Source: an uncultured Thermoplasmata archaeon (GTDB lineage Archaea; Thermoplasmatota; Thermoplasmata; UBA10834). From it: DNA of 64,000 bases. Positions 9,824-29,979 of the stretch are shown here, in pieces; position 1 is the stretch's first letter, and each line of letters starts with the position of its first letter. Where the stretch lies: the NCBI GenBank assembly GCA_963705355.1, contig OY970070.1:686818-750817 (forward strand), written 5' to 3'. The notes beneath the pieces are model-generated. The model did not search any database. It was not told the origin of the DNA and saw only the letters and a program-made list of their open reading frames with translations. The translations under genes and the position numbers were made by a program.

Positions 9824-9934
9824 GCAGGTGTAATCTAGCTGGTTAGGATTTTGGCCTTCCAACTCTTCAAGAAATATGATAAAATTGGAGAGGGACGAAA
9901 GCCAACGGCCCGGGTTCAAATCCCGGCACCTGCA
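9824..9934 (+). tRNA. tRNA-Gly (anticodon TCC) with an approx. 38-nt anticodon-loop intron
   Basis: Acceptor GCAGGTG/CACCTGC, D-arm ATCT...GGAT, anticodon stem TTGGC (9851-9855) pairing with GCCAA (9901-9905) across a 38-nt insert after loop position 37; T-arm CCGGG-TTCAAAT-CCCGG. Confidence 0.7.
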
Positions 9935-9986
9935 CTTTCGTTCCGTTGAGTTTCAGTTCAGCCCCGCTCGCAATTCTGCAATCGGT

Positions 9987-10757: not shown

Positions 10758-13700
10758 TTGGGCCTGCTTGACACGCTCTGGAACAAGGAGAAGAAGCTTC
10801 TGGAGAGATCCAGAAAAGAGCTGGCAAGAGCCGATTCCCTCGAAAAGAGCGGCAGAACGGAGGACGCTCTTGCGGAGCTCGAGAAGACAAGGGCACTGCT
10901 GAAAGAGAACATGCTTTTCATCGGGAAGATGAGGCTGGACTTCTCGCAGGTGTTCACTCAGCTGGGCGATGGCTACCTCGCTCACGAGAGGGCGCAGATT
11001 GCGCAGGATGCTGCGAAGAGGGCTCTCGAGCTGGATCCAAAGAACCCGCTCGCCATGGGCGTTGAAGGGCGCTCAGCGCTGAAGCTCGGCATGACCGAAC
11101 AGGCACTCGCATCGCTCAGAAATGCCGTGGCACTGGCACCTGACTCTGAGAATCTGTGGTCGGCCTTGGGTGAGGCCCAGGATGCGATAGGGGATTTTGT
11201 CGGGGCGATCGAGAGCTACAAGCGCGCTCTGGCCATCAACCCTCTTGGCATTCGTCACTTCGACAAGATACTCGCGCACACGCCCAACGATCTGGATATG
11301 ATCAAGAAGAAAGGAACCACATTGAGCAAGCTGCAGAGGTACGATGAGGCCGTCAGCACATTCCAGGCCGGAATCGACATCGAGCCCAAGGACAAGGATC
11401 TCTGGATAGGAAGGGCGGCCGCGCTCAACCTCGCGGGCAAGAGCGAGCAGGCAATCGAGGCACTCAACTCGGCCCTGAAGATAGATCCGAACGATGTGTA
11501 CTGCCTCGACAACCTCGGAAGGATCCTGCACAAGCAGGGCATGCGCGAAGAGGCCCTGACGAGTTTCACCAGAGCCTCAGAAATCGATCGAGGGAACAAG
11601 GTTGTCTGGAACGAGCTCGGGGTCGTGCAAGAGGAGCTCGACCTGCACGATAAGGCGCTCGAATCTTTCGACCAGGCGCTGAGGATTGATCCGAACGATA
11701 TCAACGTTCTGAGCAATAAGAAGAAGACCCTGCTGAAGGTCGCGCGCTACGCAGAGCTCATAGGGGTCTGTGACAAGATACTTCTGATCAGCCCGCATGA
11801 TCACGAATCTCTGCTGGACAAGGCTAAGGCCCTGTACGAATTGAAGAGATACGACGAGGCGCTGACCTTCATCGACGCAACGCTCAACCTGGCGCCAAGG
11901 CTGAAGGAGGCGATGAACCTCAAGAAGGAGTGTCTGATTCGGCTGGAAAGGCACGGCGATGTGATTGCGTGGTGCACCAAGATTCTCGAGGGCGACCCCG
12001 ACGACTATGCTGCGATGCACGACAAAGGTGTCGCACAGCTGAAGTCCGACCGACCGCAGGAAGCCATAAAGACTTTCGAGAAGGCATTGAAGATAGCTCC
12101 CGACCCGCTGCCGATGCTCGAGAGCCTGAAGGACGCCTACAAAAGGCTGCAGAAAGACGGTCAGGTCGTACAGACCTGCGACCGGATAATCGCCATCGAC
12201 GCGAACAACAAGACCGCGCACCTCGACAAGGCCGTCGCGTTGGACAGAGCTGACCAGTTCGACGAGAGCCAGGCGGCGTACAGGCTGGCGCTCAAGTACG
12301 ATCCTAAGAACCCGGAGATCTTCTTCAACATGGCCGCTCTGTTCCTCAGGTCCGGCAAGCCCAAGGAGGCTGTGGACTACTCCAAACAGGGGATTCAGAT
12401 CGCGCCGACAAACCACGCGTTGTGGAAGATCAATGGCGACGCGAGTCTCAATTCCAAGGACTACGAGGCAGCAGTCGCAGCCTACTCGAAGGCTGTCGAG
12501 CTCGATCCGAAAGATCAGGCGAGCTTCGCGAAGCTCGGCCGGTCGTTCATAGAACTCAAGCGGTTCGAACAGGGTCTGATGGCGTACGAACATGCGCTAC
12601 AGCTTGACGCGAAAGACGCCGAAGTGTGGTTCCAGAGGGCTGAGGCACTCGAATGGCTCGACAGAGACCAGGATGCGCTCTCTTCGGTTCAAGAGGCCAT
12701 GAGGCTCAAAGCCACGACGCCAGAGTACAGAGTGAAGGAAGGCATGCTCCTCAGGAACCTTGGCAAGCCAGAGGACGCTCTGAGGGCATACGACGAGGCT
12801 CTCAGGCTGTCCCCGAGAAACGTGGCCGTGCTGAACTCGAAGAAGGATCTGTTGAAATCTCTGAAGAGGAACGATGATGTAATAGCCGTCTGCAACGAGA
12901 TACTTCAGTTGGCCCCCAAGGACCGAGATGCCCTGATAGACAAGGGCAGCGCGGCGCTCTTTCAGAAGCGGCCCAACGAGGCTCTAGTGTGCTTCAACAA
13001 GGCTCTCGAGCACGATGCGGACAACCTCGACACACTGGAGCTCAAGAAGATGGCGCTCATCTCCCTCGACGACTCGGAGAGTGTCGTGGCGGTGACCGAT
13101 CACATTCTGCGCCTGAGCCCGAAGAACAAGAATGCATTGGCGGACAGGGCGAGCGCGCTCGAGAAGCTAGGGAGAGCCGACGAGGCCATCAGGAGCTACG
13201 AGACCGCACTGACACTCGACCCGAAAGATATCTTCCTCTGGAACAGGAAGGGGCTTCTGCTTCTAGGGGCAGGAAACCCCGCGCAGGCGGCGGAGGCGTT
13301 CGATTACGCAATCAAGCTAGACTCCAACCAACCGTTCGTCCTGAACAATAGGGGAAAAGCGTATCTCGAGCTCCGAAGGTTCGAGGAGTCTCTCGCTGAT
13401 TTCAAAAAGGCCATAAAGATCCTGCCGAATGTGGCGGAGTTCCACACAAACGAGGGCAGGGCACTTGCGAGCCTCGGCAGATTCGACGACAGCATTGGGT
13501 CGTTCAACGAGGCACGCAGACAGGCGCCCAAAGACTCATCCACATTCAAGTACATGGGCATGGCCCTCCTCAAATTGAACAGGGTGTCGGAAGCACTCGG
13601 GGCGTTCGACGAGGCGATCAAGCTAGGCTCCAACGACCAGGATATGTGGAAGAGCAGAGCGAAAGGCTTCGAGGCGATGGGAGACAAGGAGGAAGCTGTG

Positions 13701-15215
13701 AGATCCTACATGAAGGCGCTCGAGATCGACCCCGAGGACCAAGCAGCTTGGTACAGGCTCGGCCTGCTGCACCTGGAGATCGGCAGGTTCTCGGACGCGA
13801 ACGCATGCTTCGACAAAGCGCTGGACCTCGACAGCGCCAACCCCAAGATATGGATGAGCAAAGGCTTCGCGATGGAGAAGCAGAACCTCTACGAGGAAGC
13901 GGTGAGTTCCTACGACAGGGCGATCGGGCTCGACTCCAACGACAAGGAGGCGTGGAAGAGCAAGGGGCAGGTGCTGCTCGCGCTCGGACGCGCGGAACCA
14001 GCGCTGCGGTGCTTCGACCACGCGCTCAGCATCGACCCCTACTTCGAGGCTGCCTCAGAGGGCAGGAAGCAGGCGGAGGACGATATCCGAAAGAACAAGA
14101 TCGAGGACTACTCCAGGGCGGTGCTCGAGTTCGAGTACGCCCACGGCCGCCCGGTGACCAAGGAGGAAGCATTCAAAGTGTGTGGGATTCCCTATGCATT
14201 CCTTGGAGACGTGCTGGAATTCCTGAGCGGAAAGGAGAACGTCGGCCTCACGGGCATGGTCAGGGAGGAGTCCGACAGATACGAGAGGATGTCACGAGAG
14301 GTCCTCGTGAACACGATGGAGAAGCGAGACCTCGCGGCACATGGTCTCCGACTCTGCGACATCACAGTCAACTTCCCAGATCTCAGAATCTCGAGCGCGA
14401 AGAAGATACTCAGCTACATACAGGCGGTCGAGGAGCATGAGTTCAGCACGAAGTCATCGGACCCCCAGACTGAGGCACTGCTGCGACAGGCGCTCGAACT
14501 GCCCAACGACCAGAAGAACGTCCTGGGACTGATCAGGAACCTCGGCATCGGGGCATACTGGGCCCGACAAATTGTGACGATCCTTCACACCTTCCAGGGC
14601 GCTGGATTCGCGACGCCGGCAGTGGCGCTGAAGTCCATCGTCAGCGAGAGCTACGGGCACTACTCCCCTTACGACGAGCGTGCAGCTTGGCGGGAGAGGC
14701 CTTCGCCTGAAGAGCCTTCATTTCCGTCCGAGAGGAGAGGACGCCGTCGAGAAGCGCCCCGGCCCGAAGAGATGCATAAAGAGGAGCGAGAGCCCAGAGC
14801 GGCCGAAAGGTACAGTCATGAGGTCGAAGCCCTCAGACAAAAACCGCGGCCGAAGCCTCAGAGGGAGCGGCCAGGAAGGGAGACCGAGCGCGCTCCTCAG
14901 GAAATTCCTTCTGATTTGGTCGGGCGCAGATGCCTGTTCCACGGAGGCATCGCGGTCGCGAGATGCGCGAAATGCAAGGCGGTGCTCTGCAGGGAATGCA
15001 TCAGAGGGTCTGACAGATGCCCCAGATGCAACACCCCGCTGAGGGCGGTGGAAGAGACCGAAGAAGGGAGACGGCCGAGAGAGGTCGAAGCCGAGGAAGA
15101 GCCTGAAGAGGAGGCCGAGCAGGAGCCGGAGGAAAGGCCTCGGAAGAGACCCAGGGAAAGGCAGAAACCTCCCCGAAAGAAGACCGAAGAGGATGAGGAT
15201 CTGAATCGCCTTTGA
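10758..15215 (+). CDS. very large tetratricopeptide-repeat (TPR) protein with C-terminal Cys-rich zinc ribbon and charged tail
   Basis: 1485 aa; dozens of 34-residue TPR-like units over about 1,100 aa; C-terminal CLFHGG...CAKCKAVLCRECIRGSDRCPRCN followed by E/K/R/P-rich tail. First in-frame start is TTG; first ATG is 51 codons downstream. Confidence 0.7.
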   Translation: MGLLDTLWNKEKKLLERSRKELARADSLEKSGRTEDALAELEKTRALLKENMLFIGKMRLDFSQVFTQLGDGYLAHERAQIAQDAAKRALELDPKNPLAMGVEGRSALKLGMTEQALASLRNAVALAPDSENLWSALGEAQDAIGDFVGAIESYKRALAINPLGIRHFDKILAHTPNDLDMIKKKGTTLSKLQRYDEAVSTFQAGIDIEPKDKDLWIGRAAALNLAGKSEQAIEALNSALKIDPNDVYCLDNLGRILHKQGMREEALTSFTRASEIDRGNKVVWNELGVVQEELDLHDKALESFDQALRIDPNDINVLSNKKKTLLKVARYAELIGVCDKILLISPHDHESLLDKAKALYELKRYDEALTFIDATLNLAPRLKEAMNLKKECLIRLERHGDVIAWCTKILEGDPDDYAAMHDKGVAQLKSDRPQEAIKTFEKALKIAPDPLPMLESLKDAYKRLQKDGQVVQTCDRIIAIDANNKTAHLDKAVALDRADQFDESQAAYRLALKYDPKNPEIFFNMAALFLRSGKPKEAVDYSKQGIQIAPTNHALWKINGDASLNSKDYEAAVAAYSKAVELDPKDQASFAKLGRSFIELKRFEQGLMAYEHALQLDAKDAEVWFQRAEALEWLDRDQDALSSVQEAMRLKATTPEYRVKEGMLLRNLGKPEDALRAYDEALRLSPRNVAVLNSKKDLLKSLKRNDDVIAVCNEILQLAPKDRDALIDKGSAALFQKRPNEALVCFNKALEHDADNLDTLELKKMALISLDDSESVVAVTDHILRLSPKNKNALADRASALEKLGRADEAIRSYETALTLDPKDIFLWNRKGLLLLGAGNPAQAAEAFDYAIKLDSNQPFVLNNRGKAYLELRRFEESLADFKKAIKILPNVAEFHTNEGRALASLGRFDDSIGSFNEARRQAPKDSSTFKYMGMALLKLNRVSEALGAFDEAIKLGSNDQDMWKSRAKGFEAMGDKEEAVRSYMKALEIDPEDQAAWYRLGLLHLEIGRFSDANACFDKALDLDSANPKIWMSKGFAMEKQNLYEEAVSSYDRAIGLDSNDKEAWKSKGQVLLALGRAEPALRCFDHALSIDPYFEAASEGRKQAEDDIRKNKIEDYSRAVLEFEYAHGRPVTKEEAFKVCGIPYAFLGDVLEFLSGKENVGLTGMVREESDRYERMSREVLVNTMEKRDLAAHGLRLCDITVNFPDLRISSAKKILSYIQAVEEHEFSTKSSDPQTEALLRQALELPNDQKNVLGLIRNLGIGAYWARQIVTILHTFQGAGFATPAVALKSIVSESYGHYSPYDERAAWRERPSPEEPSFPSERRGRRREAPRPEEMHKEEREPRAAERYSHEVEALRQKPRPKPQRERPGRETERAPQEIPSDLVGRRCLFHGGIAVARCAKCKAVLCRECIRGSDRCPRCNTPLRAVEETEEGRRPREVEAEEEPEEEAEQEPEERPRKRPRERQKPPRKKTEEDEDLNRL

Positions 15216-19290: not shown

Positions 19291-20706
19291 TCAGAAAAGT
19301 ACCTTCTTTCCCAGCTTCGCCCTCTCAACGTTCCCGTGCAATTCGGAGAACACCTTCGCGTGCTTGGTGTGTATCGGGACGAGCCTGTCCGGGTCAGCGT
19401 TCCCGATGAACGCTTCCAACTCCTCCCTGCAAGCATGGCCGGAGGCGTGATGGTGGTGTTTGCTCAGCTTCAGAAGTTTCAGCCAGTTTCTCAAACGCCT
19501 CTCGTCGATCAGCTGCTCCTCATTGTGCGCCTCTGAGGTCGAGTGGATGTAGATGCTGCCAGGAGGCATCTCGAAATCCAGGAGGTTGGTCATGTCATAG
19601 AACCCTGAGTGGAGTATCCGCTTTTCCCCGCCCTTTGCGACATCAGGGCCGCGGATCACATTGCCACAGCTGAGGAACTGGCGCTCCCAGGTTTTGTAGT
19701 CACTGTCGTCGAAGTTGCCCTTGCCCTTCTTCTCCATGAGCAGTTCGATGGATGGTTCGGTTCGAGGGTCTGGAAGTGTTAGGCCTTTCGACCTCATCGT
19801 GGACAGGATCAACGCGTCTCTGAAGGTCAGAACTAATGTGCGCCCGCTCTCCTTGGCAGCCTCCAGGAATGTCTCGAGCCGCTGCAGGTCCTTGTAGGCG
19901 AAGTCAGCGACGACCAACCCCTTCGCCTGCTTGGCCAGGTCAACAACGGCCGTCCTGACTTCCTTCTCAGACGGCTTGCCACGCTCATGCACGCGAGTCC
20001 CCTCGCACAGCATGATGTCAATCTCGTTCCCCGATATCCGCCGCATCGTCTCCGCGGTCGTGTTGCCGAACCCTTCCACCCGCAGGTCCCCGGAATACAG
20101 TAGCGAGCCCTCAGATGTGTGGACCAAATAACTCATCGCGCCGGGGACCGAGTGATCGACAGGCAAGCCCTCGACCACGATGCCGTCCACTGCCACTTTC
20201 TTGTTCGGCTCAACAACGACCCACTTCCTTCTCACGACATCATCAGACCTACTGGATGGCCTTCGTTTGTACTCGAATATCTCGCTCTCGAAGTCGTGGA
20301 CGTTGCAGATGCTGAGCGCTTCAGCCATGGCGGACGATTGCAGCGAGGCGTAAACTGGCACGTTCTCGTTCAGGAAGGCGATGTATGAGGAGTGGTCCAT
20401 GTGTATGTGAGTGAGGAAGACCGCCTGGACGGGGCAGGCATCCGATGTCCCCATGCCGAGCATCTTGAGGTAGTCCGACCGGTAGACGCCGCAGAAGTCA
20501 GGATGCATCGCATCGGGCAGCAGGCCAGTGCGAATGAGGTCGGTCAGGCCTGCGGACGCGCGGGGTCTCAGGTACTCCTCGAAGTACTTACCCTTCTGAT
20601 TGTAGCTGAGGCCGAGGTCGAGGAAGATCCGACTCCCGCGGTCTTCCAGAAGGATCTTGTTCCCTCCGATCTCGTTGACCCCACCGTGGAGCGTTATGCT
20701 TGTCAT
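19291..20706 (-). CDS. beta-CASP family metallo-beta-lactamase ribonuclease (aCPSF2 / RNase J-like)
   Basis: 471 aa; MBL motif THIHMDH near N-terminus and a C-terminal His-rich region consistent with beta-CASP nucleases. Confidence 0.5.
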   Translation of the reverse strand: MTSITLHGGVNEIGGNKILLEDRGSRIFLDLGLSYNQKGKYFEEYLRPRASAGLTDLIRTGLLPDAMHPDFCGVYRSDYLKMLGMGTSDACPVQAVFLTHIHMDHSSYIAFLNENVPVYASLQSSAMAEALSICNVHDFESEIFEYKRRPSSRSDDVVRRKWVVVEPNKKVAVDGIVVEGLPVDHSVPGAMSYLVHTSEGSLLYSGDLRVEGFGNTTAETMRRISGNEIDIMLCEGTRVHERGKPSEKEVRTAVVDLAKQAKGLVVADFAYKDLQRLETFLEAAKESGRTLVLTFRDALILSTMRSKGLTLPDPRTEPSIELLMEKKGKGNFDDSDYKTWERQFLSCGNVIRGPDVAKGGEKRILHSGFYDMTNLLDFEMPPGSIYIHSTSEAHNEEQLIDERRLRNWLKLLKLSKHHHHASGHACREELEAFIGNADPDRLVPIHTKHAKVFSELHGNVERAKLGKKVLF

Positions 20707-20715
20707 GCGTCTCCC

Positions 20716-21414
20716 TCATGAGTTCGACATCGCCATCAAGCTTTTGGTTTGCGCGCTGCGAACACGGGGCAGTATATCCCTCAGAACATCAGCAGTGTGG
20801 AAGTCGTCCAATGATGCGATGTGCGGCCTGCGCTGACCCATCTCCTCGGCCAAGTCCGCGATTTTCAGCCACGATGGCAATTCAGAGATACCCTTGATCC
20901 TCTCCGCTCTGGCCCAGCTGTTGTACGGTCTGTCCACTAGGATGGCCTCCACGCCAATCCTCCTGACAGGGTACAGGTCGAGAACCGGCATGTCGCCCAC
21001 CATGACGGCCTCCTCCCGCTTGAATCCCTTTCTATAGAGATACTTGGCAATCAGCTTGCCCTTGTTGTCGTTCAGCATGATCTCGTCGAAGAGATGGCGG
21101 ATGCCGAACTTGTCGAGCAAGGCGGTCAGTATCTCCTTCGGGTTCTTCGAAACGATGCACAAGGTCTCGACTTGTCCTCTTAGTGCCTCGAGCGATTCTC
21201 TGACGCCCTTGTCCAGCTCGAAGAACTCGACTGCGGCATCAGGTGAAGGGTCCGCCCAGAACTCCCAGCGAGACTTGCCGTTCTTGGGCACATAGAGTGT
21301 GCCCTCCGCATCAAGGAACACGTGTCTGAATTTCCGCACCTTCTGTGCATCCCATTGGCTCATGATTGGTGAAGTCGCAGGCCCGGTATTGATGGAGATC
21401 AGATATCGTATCAT
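20716..21414 (-). CDS. HAD-superfamily hydrolase-like protein
   Basis: Motif-I-like VFLDAEGTL (second Asp replaced by Glu) and downstream GDMPVLD; start uncertain. Confidence 0.4.
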   Translation of the reverse strand: MIRYLISINTGPATSPIMSQWDAQKVRKFRHVFLDAEGTLYVPKNGKSRWEFWADPSPDAAVEFFELDKGVRESLEALRGQVETLCIVSKNPKEILTALLDKFGIRHLFDEIMLNDNKGKLIAKYLYRKGFKREEAVMVGDMPVLDLYPVRRIGVEAILVDRPYNSWARAERIKGISELPSWLKIADLAEEMGQRRPHIASLDDFHTADVLRDILPRVRSAQTKSLMAMSNS

Positions 21415-21511
21415 ATCGGCTGATACGAAGAGGCATGGCTCTGGAGGAATTGTGTCAGCACCGGATTTAATATTAGTATGATAATTATTATTACGGTATC
21501 ACAAGAAGTAA

Positions 21512-22216
21512 ATGGAACCGACGACATACACTATCTCGGCGAGAAGAATGGTAGTTGTCTTCGGTACCCTTGGCTTTCGTCCAAAGTCCCTGGTTCCAAC
21601 AATAAGATCCACGCCAAATGTGGACAAGGTCGTGTTCTACTGCGGTGCGGACAAGTCCGACACAGAGGCGACGAGGAGGGTCGGGGAGGCGAGGAAGGCT
21701 GTCCTGGAGTATTGCCGAAGCATGAAGCTTGCAGTCGAGGCGGTTGACTTGGACGATCCATTCGACTTCAAGAACATCGCAGTGAGGATCAGGGGCGACA
21801 TTCGCAAGCACAAGCGCGAGGGCAGAGAGATTGCGATTTTCAACATAGCCGGGGGAACGAAACCCACCTCTGCTGCGGCCTTGCTGGTTTGCATCCTGGA
21901 GGGAATACCGACGGTGTACGTCCACGACCTGACCTACGAAGAGATCCCGCTGCCGCTGCTGAAGATGGAATATAGCCAGGTGCTATCGGGCGAGGAGCGA
22001 GAGATACTCAAGACGTTGTCGAAAAACAAGTCGAGGAAGCTAACAGAGGTCGAGCTGGCATCGCTGATTGGAAAGCACAAGGCAACCGTCAACCACCACC
22101 TCCGCAACCTCGTCGCCAAAGGCGCGGTGAGGCTGGAGAGACACCCGGACGACTCGAGGAAGAAGGTCGTGGTCGTCGAGGAGTCGACGGAGCTCCTGCT
22201 TGGTGATGACGAGTGA
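21512..22216 (+). CDS. Csa3/CARF-like regulator with C-terminal winged HTH (paralog A)
   Basis: N-terminal strand VVVFGTLGF, glycine-rich NIAGGTKP about 100 aa later, C-terminal wHTH-like segment; AT-rich promoter-like stretch upstream. Confidence 0.5.
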   Translation: MEPTTYTISARRMVVVFGTLGFRPKSLVPTIRSTPNVDKVVFYCGADKSDTEATRRVGEARKAVLEYCRSMKLAVEAVDLDDPFDFKNIAVRIRGDIRKHKREGREIAIFNIAGGTKPTSAAALLVCILEGIPTVYVHDLTYEEIPLPLLKMEYSQVLSGEEREILKTLSKNKSRKLTEVELASLIGKHKATVNHHLRNLVAKGAVRLERHPDDSRKKVVVVEESTELLLGDDE

Positions 22217-22863
22217 GAATCCTTGTTTCCACCTTCGGTCCTGAGGACGCTGAAAGGGTCCTGCAGGCCATGAGGCAGCTTCCATATGACAAGCTGGTCC
22301 TCATCGGCCAGGAAGGCATCCAAGGATGCGAAGCGTTTCAGAGGATCAAGAACCTCGAAGATATGGCTGGCCATGCGGTCGACGCCGAGACTGTTGATGA
22401 AGATGATTTCATGGCGCTCGTCGACGGAGTATCGGAGATACTCCTGAGACATGCAAACGGCGGAAGGAATCCCGTGACACTGAACATCAGCGGCGGATCG
22501 AAGTTGCTGGGTGATGCCGCGCTGCTTGCGGCATTCCGCTTCGGATTGGAGGCGTTCCATTTCGACGGCAGGATCACCAAACTGCCGGTTCTCCAAGGGG
22601 CGACCGCGAAGGACAGATTCACGACTTCTCAGACGAGACTGATCAACGTGATTGGGGAAAAGAATCTGGTCTTGGACGATCTGATCGTCAAGATGAAACC
22701 GGCGAGCAAGCAATCAACCGAGAGAGTGATTCGAGAACTTAGGAAGCAGAACCTGCTCAGACCCGAGGTGCGCAGAAGGAAGGTCCGCTTGTCACTGTCA
22801 CCCTCGGGGTTGGAGGTCTTCCGCGCTATCCGCCTGACCGCAACGAACAAGAGACCAGATTAG
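22213..22863 (+). CDS. Csa3/CARF-like regulator with C-terminal winged HTH (paralog B)
   Basis: Same architecture as paralog A (ILVSTFGPE, NISGGSKL, basic C-terminal HTH-like region); GTG start overlapping the upstream stop (GTGA). Confidence 0.5.
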   Translation: MRILVSTFGPEDAERVLQAMRQLPYDKLVLIGQEGIQGCEAFQRIKNLEDMAGHAVDAETVDEDDFMALVDGVSEILLRHANGGRNPVTLNISGGSKLLGDAALLAAFRFGLEAFHFDGRITKLPVLQGATAKDRFTTSQTRLINVIGEKNLVLDDLIVKMKPASKQSTERVIRELRKQNLLRPEVRRRKVRLSLSPSGLEVFRAIRLTATNKRPD

Positions 22864-23657: not shown

Positions 23658-23763
23658 TGGCGGGCTTGAAGGGATTCGAACCCTTGGCCAACCGGTGTCT
23701 CCTTCCGTTCCTTTCAGAACCGAAGTAAGAGCCGGTTGCTCTACCTAGCTGAGCTACAAGCCC
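23658..23763 (-). tRNA. tRNA-Lys (anticodon CTT) with approx. 29-nt anticodon-loop intron and genomically encoded CCA
   Basis: Minus-strand fold: acceptor GGGCTTG/CAAGCCC, D-arm GCTC-AGCTAGGTA-GAGC, anticodon stem ACCGG/CCGGT split by insert after position 37, T-arm AAGGG-TTCGAAT-CCCTT, discriminator G then CCA. Confidence 0.75.
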
Positions 23764-23926: not shown

Positions 23927-25423
23927 TCAGCTTTTGCCGAACTCGTTCACTATCGCACTGAGCCCCTTAGACTTGTCAGCGTCCAGCGGGACCGGCTTGT
24001 GCTCCTTCAAGATCTGCTCGATGCGCGCGTTCGCCGCCTCGAGCGAGTCCATGCCGCCTTTGTTCACGGCCTGCTCGAAGGTCTCCGTCCTCCACATTAG
24101 CTGCATGTAGTAGTCGCGCATGTGCGAGAGCGTGTGCTTCTGACCCAGATAGTTCCCGCCTATGCCGACCTTCTTGATCAGGTCCACTGCTAGCGTCTCA
24201 TCGCTGACCTCGAACCCGCTCATGGTCTTCAGGGTCATACCAGCTATCTCATGGTCGAACAGCAGCTGCTCGTACGACAGAAGTGTGGAGCCGTCCGGAA
24301 CCCCCAGGCCATTGATGACCTCTCCGCCGACAAGGATGCTCGCGGCGGTGGAGAGCTGGTTCTCTATCGATGCCTGCACGCCAGGGACCTTCGCGCTCGA
24401 GCCCATGCCTCCTGTGGAGTTCGGTATCTTGCAGAACTTGGCCATCTCGACCGCGGCAGCGCAAAGGATGGTGCTCTCGGGCGAGCCGCCTATGTACGCG
24501 CCCGACATCGGGTCCATGGCGGAAAGGACGGAGCCGTACATGACGGGCGAACCGGGTTCGTGAGCTTGCATCGCGCATGCGAGCGCGAGCGTCTCCGCGT
24601 GATTGACCACGAGGTCGCCAGCGATCGTTGCGGGACCGTTCATGCCCGCCTGGGCCATGCCGGTGATGTGCACTGGAACATGGTTCTCCGCCCAGACCAT
24701 CGCCGCCTCAGTGGTCGGACCTTCGAGCACGAGCGGCGAGACTGTGCAGACCATGGCGGAGATGTAGTGTCTATTCCTCAGCTCCTCGATGTCGCCCATG
24801 ATCTCGGCGGCCATCTTGACCTGGGCCCTGGCCTCGTCCGGGTTCGAAGTCGACTCGGTCAGAATGTGCTTCTGAGTGTTCTCCATCGCGACCCTAACGC
24901 CCTCGATCACGTGCATCTTTTCCGGCACATCGTGCGCGACAACCATCGGCTCATAGATGCTTACGTACGGAAGCCAATCGGATATGATCGCCGTCCTGCG
25001 AATGTCCTCCAGGACAGACCTTCTTTTGGTCCGCGTCTTGGCCTCCCACACAGCGACTCCGCAACCGTCGGTTGTGAAGTAGCTGTGGTTGCCGTCAAGG
25101 GGGAGATCGAACTCCTTGGTTCGACCCGCAAGGGTGTACGTCTTTGGGATCTTCTTCGAGAGCGAGTTCACGACACTTATAGGGAACTTGACGACCTCGG
25201 TCTTCTCGTCCACGATGGCCCCCGAGCCCTTCAGGGCGCTCCTGGCCGTCTTGCTGTGGACCTTGAGGCCGACGTCCTCCATCACCTCGAGGGTGGCCTC
25301 GTGGATCATCTTCTTGTCCGTCGTGCTCATCAGCTCGCACTTTGTCTTGACCTTGAAATTGTCTGCGAAGTTCTGGTTTGCCATTTTGTTCACTTCCTCC
25401 TGACACGCAGTCAGATATTGCAT
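23927..25423 (-). CDS. MttB-superfamily (trimethylamine/quaternary-amine:corrinoid) methyltransferase, no in-frame amber codon
   Basis: About 490-aa uninterrupted ORF of MttB-family length and layout (N-terminal IHEATLEVMEDVGLKV); probable ATG start at MANQ. Confidence 0.7.
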   Translation of the reverse strand: MQYLTACQEEVNKMANQNFADNFKVKTKCELMSTTDKKMIHEATLEVMEDVGLKVHSKTARSALKGSGAIVDEKTEVVKFPISVVNSLSKKIPKTYTLAGRTKEFDLPLDGNHSYFTTDGCGVAVWEAKTRTKRRSVLEDIRRTAIISDWLPYVSIYEPMVVAHDVPEKMHVIEGVRVAMENTQKHILTESTSNPDEARAQVKMAAEIMGDIEELRNRHYISAMVCTVSPLVLEGPTTEAAMVWAENHVPVHITGMAQAGMNGPATIAGDLVVNHAETLALACAMQAHEPGSPVMYGSVLSAMDPMSGAYIGGSPESTILCAAAVEMAKFCKIPNSTGGMGSSAKVPGVQASIENQLSTAASILVGGEVINGLGVPDGSTLLSYEQLLFDHEIAGMTLKTMSGFEVSDETLAVDLIKKVGIGGNYLGQKHTLSHMRDYYMQLMWRTETFEQAVNKGGMDSLEAANARIEQILKEHKPVPLDADKSKGLSAIVNEFGKS

Positions 25424-25486: not shown

Positions 25487-26953
25487 TCAGAAGCTACGTT
25501 TCTCCAGGGCATCAGCGCCGATGCTCTTCGAGTACTCCCGAATGATGCTGTCGATGCTCTTTCTGACCTCGGTCTCGAGAGGTTCGGGATGATGCGAACC
25601 AAGAAGCTCGACCATGCGCTCCTTGGCGCGCTTCTTCGCGTCCTTGGAGCCGGCCTCCATCCACCTTGTCCTGCTGGCCCTGTCCGAGATCCTGGGCGCC
25701 AAATGCTCCTTCCTGAAACGCAGCAAGGTGTCCTTCTGCTTCAAGTAGCTGCCCATCGGGCCTACCTTGTTGATGAGTTCGACTGAAAGTGTCTGATCGT
25801 TCACTTCGATGCCCTCGGAGAACCTGAGGGCATTGGCTGCGATCTCCTCGTCAATTACAAGCTGAACCGGCGAGAACGTGCTGAAAGCTTCAGTCGCGCC
25901 GATGAACAGGTCCGAGAAGTCGGCGCCCGCAGCGGCGGCTGCAAGAGCTGAGAAGGCCTTCTCATATGCGGCTTGCTCATCCACCGCCTTTGAGTCGCTC
26001 TGAACCCCCATGTTGCTGGGCAGGCCGTAGTACTTGGCGAGTTGCACCGCGCCCACGCCAATGAGAGAGAACTCGGGGGCACCAGTGGCGGACATCCCGC
26101 TCCTCATGTCGAGCGGGCAGGATACTGAGCCGTAGACGATCTTCGGGGATCTAGTGACCGTGCTCGCAATCACGATGGAACTGAGCACCTCGGCGTTTTG
26201 CTGCACGAGGGTCCCCGCGATGGAGGCTGGAGCGGTGCCGCCAGCAAGGGCCATGACTGTGACGAACACTGGCATATCCATTCGGCAATAGCCGAGCAGG
26301 GCCTCCAACATCGTATAATCGTGCCCAAGAGGGCTGATGGGGTCGACGTACCCGCAGAAAAGGGGCTTCTTGCGCAGGATCTCCCGGTCCCCATAGATGG
26401 CCTCTCCCAGCCTCATGGCCATCTCGACATCGTCCTTGCCCGTGCTCCCGCCGTATGTGCACTTTGACGAGTTGATCAGGCCAGCAGCCATCACCACGAT
26501 GCTCCTCTCGTAATCGCCGATGTCGCTGGCGTATGTCGGGACATAAGCGATCTGGACATTCTCAAGCGCATCCAAAAGCCTGCAGCAGAGAATGCCGTCG
26601 GCCAATTTAGGAACCCGCGCCTGGTCGGTTTCCGGATCGATGTAGTGAACGCACTCTGCGCCTGGCCCAATCTTAGTCCTGCCGTCGACGGCCTCGATCG
26701 AGTTCTTCTCGCTTCTGGCGTACCACTTGAAATTCTTCTTACAGCTCTTGACGGCCTCCATCACGACCGACTCGGGCATTTTGACGATCTTGGTCTTCCG
26801 GTCGACCTTGAGGCCTTTTCTCACTAGCAGGTCCAGCGTCTCCGAGGAGTTCACGAGCACTCCAGTCTTGCTGAGGACCTCGAGGGAAGCGCCATGGATG
26901 GCGTCCAATCCATCCTTCTCTATCACCTTCAGCATCTGTTTCCCAGAGACCAT
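25487..26953 (-). CDS. MttB-superfamily methyltransferase paralog, no in-frame amber codon
   Basis: 488-aa uninterrupted ORF with the same family layout (N-terminal IHGASLEVLSKTGVLV); tandem to the first paralog. Confidence 0.7.
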   Translation of the reverse strand: MVSGKQMLKVIEKDGLDAIHGASLEVLSKTGVLVNSSETLDLLVRKGLKVDRKTKIVKMPESVVMEAVKSCKKNFKWYARSEKNSIEAVDGRTKIGPGAECVHYIDPETDQARVPKLADGILCCRLLDALENVQIAYVPTYASDIGDYERSIVVMAAGLINSSKCTYGGSTGKDDVEMAMRLGEAIYGDREILRKKPLFCGYVDPISPLGHDYTMLEALLGYCRMDMPVFVTVMALAGGTAPASIAGTLVQQNAEVLSSIVIASTVTRSPKIVYGSVSCPLDMRSGMSATGAPEFSLIGVGAVQLAKYYGLPSNMGVQSDSKAVDEQAAYEKAFSALAAAAAGADFSDLFIGATEAFSTFSPVQLVIDEEIAANALRFSEGIEVNDQTLSVELINKVGPMGSYLKQKDTLLRFRKEHLAPRISDRASRTRWMEAGSKDAKKRAKERMVELLGSHHPEPLETEVRKSIDSIIREYSKSIGADALEKRSF

Positions 26954-28740: not shown

Positions 28741-29979
28741 ATGCTAGCCATCGTCAAGGACGAGATGCTGGTGAAGGGAGTCGCCTTCCGTCTGGACTCG
28801 GGCCTTCCGGCGGATGCGAAGTTCCTGCTCGAAGACTTCAGATTGGCAGTCAACAACGCGATCAGGGCAGGTCTTCAAGCGCGGGTGACTTCGAGAAATG
28901 CCCTGGTTAGGATCGCGTACAAGGACTTTCGCCACCAACATCCAAGGATGTATTCCCAACATCTGGTATCGGCCTTCGAAGTGGCCGGGAGCGTGCTCAA
29001 GAACTATCGCAGGCGGGTTCGAAAAGGGGGCAGCTGCAGAATCCCCTTCGTCAAGCGCCTGATTATGAAAGCAGAGAATCAGGCGTACAAGCTCGATCGG
29101 AAGTCCGGAGTCATCGACCTTCCGATCAGGGCTGGCTGTCATGTCAAGTTGAAGCTCGTCGTCAGCAAGTATCATCGGAAGTATCTGGACGATTTGGCCC
29201 TTTCTCTCGGTTCCCTGACAATTCTCCCCGACCGAGTCATAGTCGCATTCAGGAAGGATGCTCCCAGACAGTATACACCCGCATCAGTGTTGTCGCTCGA
29301 CACCAACGAGCGCAGTCTGGACGGCGTGCTCATCGAGGGTGATGCCGCCAAGGCTGTCAAAGCGGAGTTCCCAGAAGTCGCAATCATCCAGCAGCAGCAT
29401 CACGATAGGCGCAAGAGGTTTCAGAAGAAGAAAGCGCATGACAGGCGTACTTCGAGAAACCTTTGCAGGAGAGAAGGGGCGAGGGAGCACCACCGGATAG
29501 ACTACAGGATGCACCAAGTGGCAGATGCTGTCATTTCGTTCGCTGAGAGACAAAAGTCCGCAGTCGTTCTCGAGGATCTGAAAGGCATCAAATCGAAAAG
29601 GAGCAAGGAACTGAATCGGCGACTCAGCATGTGGCCCAGGCGAAAGCTTCACCAGATCATCGAGTACAAGGCACAATGGAAGGGCATCCCAGTAGTCAAG
29701 GTCGATCCAAGATACAGCAGCAGAACGTGCCCGATATGTGGGAGGATACAGGATTCCCGAATGGGCGCGGAGTTCAAATGTGATTGTGGCTGGCACCTCG
29801 ACAGGCACATCAACGCCAGCATCAACCTGCTGCAGACAGCCATCTCGAAGGGGATGGCAGGGGGTTTACGGTTCAACCCCGGCGCGTTCCAGCATGACGT
29901 GATGATGATCCCATACGAGCCAGCGATGGCCGCACGGTCGGAGCCGAATGGAACGAGTGGCATTTGCGAAGTGACCTGA
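28741..29979 (+). CDS. tnpB: TnpB/OrfB (IS200/IS605-family, IS1341-like) RuvC-type RNA-guided nuclease homolog
   Basis: RuvC-I-like SLDTNE, C-terminal zinc finger CPICG...CDCG and DRHINASINLL motif; no tnpA nearby. Confidence 0.8.
   Translation: MLAIVKDEMLVKGVAFRLDSGLPADAKFLLEDFRLAVNNAIRAGLQARVTSRNALVRIAYKDFRHQHPRMYSQHLVSAFEVAGSVLKNYRRRVRKGGSCRIPFVKRLIMKAENQAYKLDRKSGVIDLPIRAGCHVKLKLVVSKYHRKYLDDLALSLGSLTILPDRVIVAFRKDAPRQYTPASVLSLDTNERSLDGVLIEGDAAKAVKAEFPEVAIIQQQHHDRRKRFQKKKAHDRRTSRNLCRREGAREHHRIDYRMHQVADAVISFAERQKSAVVLEDLKGIKSKRSKELNRRLSMWPRRKLHQIIEYKAQWKGIPVVKVDPRYSSRTCPICGRIQDSRMGAEFKCDCGWHLDRHINASINLLQTAISKGMAGGLRFNPGAFQHDVMMIPYEPAMAARSEPNGTSGICEVT

Follow-up and report, generated by a model that had tools for sequence, protein, structure and literature searches.

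Introduction

CARF domains are known almost wholly as receptors of the cyclic oligoadenylates (cOA) made by Cas10. In this study, we analysed two adjacent genes, A and B, on a 64,000-nucleotide stretch of DNA from an uncultured Thermoplasmata archaeon (contig OY970070.1, positions 686,818 to 750,817 of the forward strand; assembly GCA_963705355.1), hereafter called the window. Both genes encode Csa3-like proteins that combine a CARF domain with a winged helix-turn-helix (wHTH), and we consider it fairly probable that they are ligand-sensing, autoregulating one-component regulators with a housekeeping function outside CRISPR-Cas loci. A divergent CARF domain outside CRISPR is that of RtcR, which senses an endogenous RNA/nucleotide signal and controls a housekeeping operon; unlike A and B, RtcR is a bacterial fusion to an NtrC-type AAA+ domain and works via sigma-54.

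It has been documented that every CARF family includes members unlinked to CRISPR-Cas (Makarova et al. 2014, PMC4012209). The closest biological precedent for A and B is HFX_2341 of Haloferax mediterranei (DUF6293, PF19810), an orphan Csa3-like CARF and DNA-binding global repressor and the only experimentally studied orphan Csa3-like regulator that we found in the literature (PMC11434293). HFX_2341 represses metabolic and transport genes, is vertically inherited, is highly conserved in its class and also occurs in CRISPR-negative haloarchaea (PMC11434293). Unlike A and B, it is a single 308-aa protein from another archaeal class, with no operator defined and no paired paralogue reported.

Three further groups of CARF and wHTH proteins are comparable. 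Csa3a and Csa3b of Sulfolobales (Sso1445; 2WTE, 6W11, 6WXQ) share with A and B a length of ~210-220 aa, pocket loops at matching residue numbers (motif 1 ~7-14, motif 2 ~94-105) and the occurrence of two paralogues per genome. They are encoded inside type I-A/III CRISPR-cas loci and regulate cas and repair genes, whereas A and B have no cas gene near them, are 15-18% identical to Csa3 and have N/D11 and F14 replaced; overlapping, translationally coupled genes such as A and B are not described for Csa3a and Csa3b in the papers considered here. MM_0565 of Methanosarcina mazei, in the part of the published account considered here (PMC7465815), is a dimeric CARF and wHTH protein with global effects beyond cas genes; unlike A and B, it lies within a type I-B CRISPR locus and binds CRISPR leaders, and that part reports no paired paralogue. 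Finally, the Crn1-type proteins Sso1393 and Sis0811 (3QYF, 7PQ2) resemble A in architecture; they are CARF and wHTH homodimers with a Lys at the pocket base and gave the highest template modelling (TM)-score matches to A. They are cA4 (cyclic tetra-adenylate)-cleaving enzymes of ~270 aa from type III loci, whereas A and B have a conserved operator and no evident equivalent of Ser12, though S14 of A is a possible Ser.

Organisation of the A/B gene pair

Both genes lie on the plus strand, and the following features were located.

21548..22216, plus strand: gene A, 222 aa, with a CARF domain at ~residues 1-135 (21548-21952) and a wHTH at ~residues 142-210 (21971-22177)
22213..22863, plus strand: gene B, 216 aa, GTG start, with a CARF domain at ~residues 1-125 (22213-22587) and a wHTH at ~residues 132-195 (22606-22797)
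22213..22216, plus strand: GTGA stop/start overlap (B start GTG, A stop TGA)
22073..22111, plus strand: recognition helix of A, KHKATVNHHLRNL, whose core KHKATVNHH is near-constant in orthologues

An initial annotation, made from the DNA letters, had described two plus-strand open reading frames (ORFs) sharing these 4 nt, and all of its quoted motifs (GTLGF and NIAGGTKP in A, STFGPE and NISGGSKL in B) were found. Its architecture for A also held, while its start at 21512 did not. The longest A frame (21512..22216, 234 aa, ATG start) carries the conserved start at its M13; about 105 of the 120 homologue matches listed are 222 aa long, and an upstream alignment of 18 orthologous loci showed that ATG 21548 is kept and ATG 21512 is not. 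Because most homologues are 222 aa long and only ATG 21548 is conserved, the true start of A is most likely 21548 rather than 21512.

The stop/start overlap is of the NTGA type. Since this is the classic termination-reinitiation arrangement, the synthesis of B probably depends on translation of A. The two proteins differ in charge: across the main clade, the CARF domain has a net charge of 0 to +3 in A (slightly basic) and of -4 to -11 in B (acidic). Within B, the CARF domain has an isoelectric point (pI) of 4.8 and the C-terminal part one of 11.5.

An antisense ORF spanning the A/B junction (21934..22713, minus strand, 259 aa) was rejected as a non-coding artefact of GC-rich sequence (GC content 57%), because homologues and domain matches all fall on the plus strand. 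This ORF is longer than either real gene and would mislead a longest-ORF gene caller.

Family membership and predicted fold

We compared A and B by BLASTP, which gave 26% identity over 91 aa (E = 0.001), and by hhalign with profiles of the orthologue sets, which gave a probability of 96.2% (E = 2.5e-9) over 168 columns covering both domains. By these alignments A and B are paralogues, as first proposed, though remote ones.

PADLOC CARF3 models matched both proteins over their full length. PDLC01853 matched A at 3.2e-90 (residues 13-231 of the 234-aa form on model positions 1-209 of 209), and PDLC01856 matched B at 2.9e-37 (residues 12-198); Csa3 and CasR models of PADLOC matched A and B alongside the CARF3--CARF models. 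The strength of the A match implies that close relatives of A were already present in the set behind PDLC01853. In Pfam, PF09651 (Cas_APE2256) matched A with 46.4 bits at residues 39-149, above the gathering cut-off (GA) of 24.8, and gave no match with B; MarR-type HTH matches were found in A at residues 160-217. PF19810 (HFX_2341_N, DUF6293) scored 29.7 bits with B and 24.1 bits with A against a GA of 30, a border-level relation of B to the HFX_2341 family rather than orthology, and a precomputed PF19810 match was present on about half of the B homologues among the matches listed. Neither protein reached the curated cut-offs for Csa3, which are 60.2 bits for NCBIfam TIGR01884 (cas_HTH, Csa3; A 43.1, B 16.8) and 27 bits for Pfam PF22662 Csa3_N (A 18.8, B 24.8). 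By these scores, therefore, A and B fall outside Csa3 sensu stricto.

Single-chain AlphaFold (AF2) models had a predicted local distance difference test (pLDDT) score of 90.5 and a predicted TM score (pTM) of 0.81 for A, and values of 91.2 and 0.80 for B. When these models were compared with the PDB by Foldseek, Csa3 (6WXQ, 2WTE, 6W11) ranked first for both proteins (E ~3-5e-9), followed by the ring nucleases Sis0811 and Sso1393 and then by Cam1, Cami1, Csm6, Can2 and Card1; all of the 50 matches listed were CARF proteins, and the unrelated Rossmann fold that the initial annotation had set against its own reading did not appear. Sequence searches of the PDB with A, B and a joint profile gave marginal matches (Cami1 at 0.006/0.0016; Csa3 through the HTH alone, at 0.15-0.21). 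The hallmarks of the CARF superfamily were present, namely the Rossmann-like fold, the beta1-alpha1 loop motif and the Gly-rich beta4-alpha4 pocket loop. Thus, A and B are CARF and wHTH proteins of the Csa3-like (CARF3) clade; the proposed Csa3-type match stands for the fold and architecture, through PADLOC and Foldseek, and does not extend to the curated Csa3 families.

Existing names for the A family vary. The JGI label for the cluster of A is 'CRISPR locus-related DNA-binding protein', and the nearest named relatives, in Methanomassiliicoccales metagenome-assembled genomes (MAGs), carry the NCBI annotation 'MarR family transcriptional regulator'. The family is narrow, with 113 clusters at 50% identity among 1.84 billion and just 16 of them at E <= 1e-30.

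Conservation of the pair in other genomes

A genome scan found 19 loci, all of them in uncultured Thermoplasmata/Thermoplasmatota MAGs. Wherever a related locus extends past A (17 cases), the next gene is a B orthologue, and the NTGA overlap is kept in 18 of the 19, where B always starts with GTG or TTG. The gene order Kbl-Tdh-MBL/beta-CASP (MBL, metallo-beta-lactamase)-HAD, then A-B, then GPN was found in 16 of 17 loci, the exception being the distant locus L019. Across the syntenic loci A is 71-97% and B 44-92% identical, and the conservation of A is about that of the adjacent core genes (Kbl, GPN GTPase).

The pair was also present in two distant lineages. In L019, A is 46% identical and the neighbours are unrelated; in L021-L023, where the B homologue has 38% identity, the genes nearby are NAC, glutaredoxin, PadR and a copper ATPase. 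Neither lineage has cas genes among the neighbours identified around the pair. We regard A/B as a fixed, vertically inherited module in Thermoplasmata. No A-B fusion (~430 aa) was found among 113 representative matches, so a heteromer of the two proteins has no Rosetta-stone support.

A candidate operator upstream of gene A

The start of the divergent HAD gene (21363) and the start of A are separated by 184 bp, and this interval contains two candidate operators.

21406..21428, no strand assigned: distal candidate operator, a perfect inverted repeat TCGTATCA-N7-TGATACGA
21408-21426: core of the distal candidate operator, GTATCA-N7-TGATAC, 19 bp
Candidate operator duplex: GTATCATATCGGCTGATAC
21476..21501, no strand assigned: proximal candidate operator, GTATGA-N14-GTATCA at -72 and -52 from the A start
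21476-21494: degenerate palindrome GTATGA-N7-TATTAC in the proximal site, with an AT-rich spacer that is TATA-like for the A-B operon

Counting both strands, the 64 kb contain just 18 copies of GTATCA; three exact copies and one G variant fall inside the 184 bp. An exact match to the palindrome GTATSA-N7-TSATAC exists only once in the window, in the promoter region of A. With up to 2 mismatches allowed, every related locus (18 of 18) has it in the 200 bp upstream of A; the background rate in these loci is 0.0086 per 200 bp (11 sites in 254 kb). Conservation is equal in its two half-sites, each of which has an invariant T2 and T4, and is missing from the 7 spacer positions. The distal palindrome lies ~45-65 nt upstream of the HAD start codon at a distance that is fixed across loci; the proximal block, an AT-rich stretch, keeps a constant distance to the A start, and the spacer between the two blocks varies. 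A search of the window for a regulon (<=2 mismatches) revealed no further members; it gave 8 matches against 3.7 expected, the sole exact one being the promoter site. The direct-repeat pattern was not enriched in the window (7 matches against 7.9 expected), and what speaks for the proximal 'direct repeat' is its positional conservation across loci.

The palindrome is present at every locus whose A retains KHKATVNHH. The A protein of L019, at 46% identity, shares this core, and the palindrome is kept there. In L021 the helix differs (TKATMNYH), the GTATCA palindrome is gone and another inverted repeat is present. Because the palindrome co-varies with the recognition helix, which is the best available evidence on this point, the wHTH of A is predicted to read GTATCA. 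[quoted passage not shown]

The other repeat was located at 7335-7353 of L021, and in L022 and L023 too, as a perfect inverted repeat AATATCC-N5-GGATATT ending at the A-like start codon. It may be the cognate operator of the L021-L023 lineage.

The predicted ligand pocket

The pocket motifs of the two CARF domains were located as follows.

21563..21589, plus strand: A motif 1 (beta1-alpha1 loop), G6-T7-L8-G9-F10-R11-P12-K13-S14; GTLG(Y/F)RPKSL in orthologues
21842..21865, plus strand: A motif 2 (beta4-alpha4 loop), N99-I-A-G102-G103-T-K105-P
22228..22254, plus strand: B motif 1, S6-T7-F8-G9-P10-E11-D12
22483..22506, plus strand: B motif 2, N91-I-S-G94-G95-S-K97-L, conserved as NISGG(S/T)K(L/I)

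Four residues (T7, N99, G102 and G103 in A numbering) are invariant in both the A and the B families, and the helix that follows is shared as well, suggesting a functional phosphate-binding pocket. Position 105 of A is R in most orthologues and K in the A protein of the window. In B orthologues, position 9 is variable (G/K/R/A/T) and position 10 is P or Q and never aromatic.

In Csa3, the contacts to cA4 are motif 1, Phi8-G9-F10-(N/D)11-x-zeta13-F14, and motif 2, small-small-G96-Phi-R98, and cA4 binding is abolished by F10A, F14A, G96A and R98A (PMC8844856). We mapped A and B onto these residues by motif position and predicted secondary structure rather than by structural superposition. Motif 2 agrees with Csa3 in both proteins (A-G-G-T-(R/K) in A, S-G-G-(S/T)-K in B). 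Motif 1 departs from it: A keeps G9 and the aromatic residue 10 and has R for N/D11 and S for F14, while in B the motif is degenerate, with G9 not conserved and the aromatic residue 10 gone. The paralogous pocket motifs of the initial annotation are thus shared for motif 2, while motif 1 is kept in part in A and degenerate in B. These data are compatible with a nucleotide-type ligand. Sensing of cOA by A and B is not established, because the adenine-stacking residues are partly kept in A and absent in B, and a symmetric Csa3-like cA4 complex is unlikely for a B homodimer.

Genomic context within the window

We searched the window for CRISPR-Cas components. The repeat searches found no CRISPR-type tandem or spaced repeats in the 64 kb, the PADLOC scan found no cas genes among its 62 ORFs, and a six-frame search found no further CARF3-like ORF. 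The claims that cas genes and arrays are lacking nearby and that the neighbours are housekeeping genes, including a HAD-IA hydrolase, a GPN GTPase and tRNA-Lys(CTT), were therefore confirmed, with the beta-CASP protein being weakly RNase-J-like. The neighbouring features are as follows.

20716..21363, minus strand: HAD-IA hydrolase gene, 215 aa, divergent from A, start at 21363
19291-20706, minus strand: beta-CASP/MBL gene beside the HAD gene (RNase J match weak, 72 bits against a cut-off of 400)
23658-23763, minus strand: tRNA-Lys(CTT) with a 29-nt intron
9824-9935, plus strand: tRNA-Gly(TCC) with a 38-nt intron
28741-29979, plus strand: TnpB-family RNA-guided endonuclease homologue, 412 aa (guided_TnpB 105 bits, NCBIfam; Cas12f/Cas14 models)

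The other neighbours are Kbl, Tdh, a GPN GTPase convergent with B, an MBL hydrolase and a GINS-like protein. PADLOC matches to Cas12f and to 'Csx1 found elsewhere' were not accepted as cas genes; all of them fall on the TnpB-like ORF at 28741-29979, which is the sole 'cas-like' match in the window. Because no CRISPR array lies near it, this homologue is probably an IS200/IS605-type element.

Several side observations were made in this region. The beta-CASP/MBL slot beside the HAD gene is 96-100% identical to the window gene in L001/L002, ~55% in L014/L017 and 31-35% in L003-L013 and L015-L016; different beta-CASP/MBL paralogues seem to occupy it in different genomes. Both tRNA genes were overlooked by default ARAGORN and detected by Rfam and by ARAGORN with the intron option. 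Two MttB-superfamily methyltransferases, ~30% identical, are encoded in tandem at 23927-25423 and 25487-26953 (both minus strand). With no interruption in either ORF and scores short of the TIGR02369 cut-off (412 and 419 bits; cut-off 525), the two are probably non-pyrrolysine members whose substrate is another methylated amine. PADLOC HerA matches fell on one ORF (best 2.2e-51), which probably encodes the archaeal HerA helicase with a housekeeping role and not a defence protein; mad2 and mad8 matches were also present. A 1485-aa protein consisting largely of TPR repeats is encoded at 10758-15215 on the plus strand (Pfam TPR_1, 5.9e-129).

Discussion

The conserved, co-translated pair and the defined palindromic operator appear to be the new details of this locus. 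We propose that a two-fold symmetric A dimer, joined through its CARF domains, binds the palindrome. From the distal site, just upstream of the probable TATA region of the HAD gene, it would control the divergent HAD-IA hydrolase gene, which is a probable co-regulated target in this clade; at the proximal AT-rich site, over the likely TATA of the A-B operon, binding would lead to autorepression. A small ligand containing phosphate and adenine might bind at the CARF dimer interface and alter wHTH geometry and DNA binding, by analogy with what has been proposed for Csa3. B would be made in a fixed ratio with A by termination-reinitiation, and would work with A as a CARF-CARF heteromer or act as a second homodimeric sensor. 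The physiological role would be housekeeping or stress signalling, as for HFX_2341 in Haloferax, rather than CRISPR control.

A physical A-B heteromer is possible, although we lean against it. The translational coupling, the strict co-inheritance, the complementary charge of the CARF domains and the degenerate motif 1 of B favour an interaction, whereas the symmetry of the operator points to DNA being read by an A homodimer. In a stronger version, the two proteins would form an obligate, asymmetric CARF-CARF heteromer as the sensor of an endogenous nucleotide signal that lacks symmetry and does not come from Cas10; the basic CARF domain of A would contribute the aromatic, adenine-stacking half of the pocket, and the acidic CARF domain of B has the degenerate motif 1. 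This version is unlikely. If true, Thermoplasmata would have a housekeeping second-messenger pathway with this pair at its core, and CARF receptors would have their first heteromeric example.

Several points weigh against our proposal. The Csa3 residues essential for cA4 binding are kept only in part by A, and motif 1 is degenerate in B. The symmetric palindrome fits a homodimeric reader and sits poorly with an A-B heterodimer; the characterised CARF proteins that we found in the literature are all homodimers, and in the literature covered, which did not include the 2020 CARF census of Makarova et al., the probable source of the PADLOC CARF3 models, neither a CARF heterodimer nor a pair of co-translated CARF regulators is described. 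Conservation is the basis for the predicted DNA binding by A, for the roles assigned to both sites and for the archaeal promoter elements, and common descent, not selection, may account for part of the synteny in close relatives. The HAD linkage is restricted to one clade, and the search of this genome for cas genes and CRISPR arrays covered the 64-kb window only.

This last point matters for the possibility that A and B are trans-acting Csa3-type cOA receptors of a distant type III (Cas10) system, linking infection to transcription. For both proteins the best structural match is Csa3 in complex with cA4, both have motif 2 (small-small-G-x-R/K), A keeps G9 and the aromatic residue 10, and the JGI cluster name points the same way. 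However, not only the 64 kb but also the identified neighbours in related loci, including three contexts unlike that of the window, are free of cas genes; conservation and synteny are core-like, unlike those of patchy defence genes, and the only operator in the window is at the promoter of the pair itself. Moreover, A has other residues in place of F14 and N/D11 and B has a degenerate motif 1, while F10A and F14A each eliminate cA4 binding by Csa3; the CARF domain of B is acidic (net -4 to -11), and both proteins score below the TIGR01884 and Csa3_N cut-offs. We therefore judge a trans-acting CRISPR role to be improbable, and improbable to about the same degree as the obligate heteromer, if slightly less so.

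It is less probable still that the CARF domain is a mere dimerisation scaffold of ligand-independent MarR-like regulators, controlled by protein level or by competition between A and B. Such a role would fit the partial retention of Csa3 motif 1, the NCBI naming of relatives as plain MarR family regulators and the finding that DNA binding by Csa3a in vitro is unchanged by cA4 (PMC8699464). Yet T7, N99, G102, G103 and R/K105 are the most conserved positions in paralogues that are otherwise ~20% identical, so a functional pocket is expected rather than a scaffold. Least probable of all is that A, B or both are Crn1-type ring nucleases, like Sso1393 and Sis0811, that degrade a cyclic oligonucleotide. 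These enzymes rank next after Csa3 for A with the top TM scores (TMq up to 0.64) and have the CARF and wHTH architecture in common; the Lys of motif 2 is invariant in B and present in the A protein of the window, Ser14 is conserved in the beta1-alpha1 loop of A, and the catalytic pair of Sis0811 is S12 and K169 (PMC8643638). In most A orthologues, however, the motif 2 position is Arg rather than Lys, the B loop has no Ser/Thr beyond T7, and Csa3 also has T7 yet has no ring nuclease activity. No source of a substrate is evident nearby, and the near-invariant recognition helix and the conserved operator point to a DNA-binding regulator. The authors of the Sis0811 study also stated that structure comparison cannot separate cleaving from non-cleaving CARF proteins (PMC8643638).

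Reading A and B as orphan regulators responsive to a nucleotide signal, as the initial annotation did, is supported with these caveats, and it is less novel than was implied, given HFX_2341 and the survey of Makarova et al. 2014. The pair is unlikely to surprise a specialist greatly. If its ligand were cA4 from a distant type III system, A and B would simply be another Csa3. What CARF proteins sense outside CRISPR loci is nevertheless a question for which A and B offer a clean system: the locus is a compact case in another archaeal class, with co-translated paralogues that differ in pocket chemistry, and it also supplies a 19-bp candidate operator co-varying with the recognition helix, together with a candidate target gene. 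The pair could thus reveal whether CARF heteromers exist and whether CARF sensing serves housekeeping.

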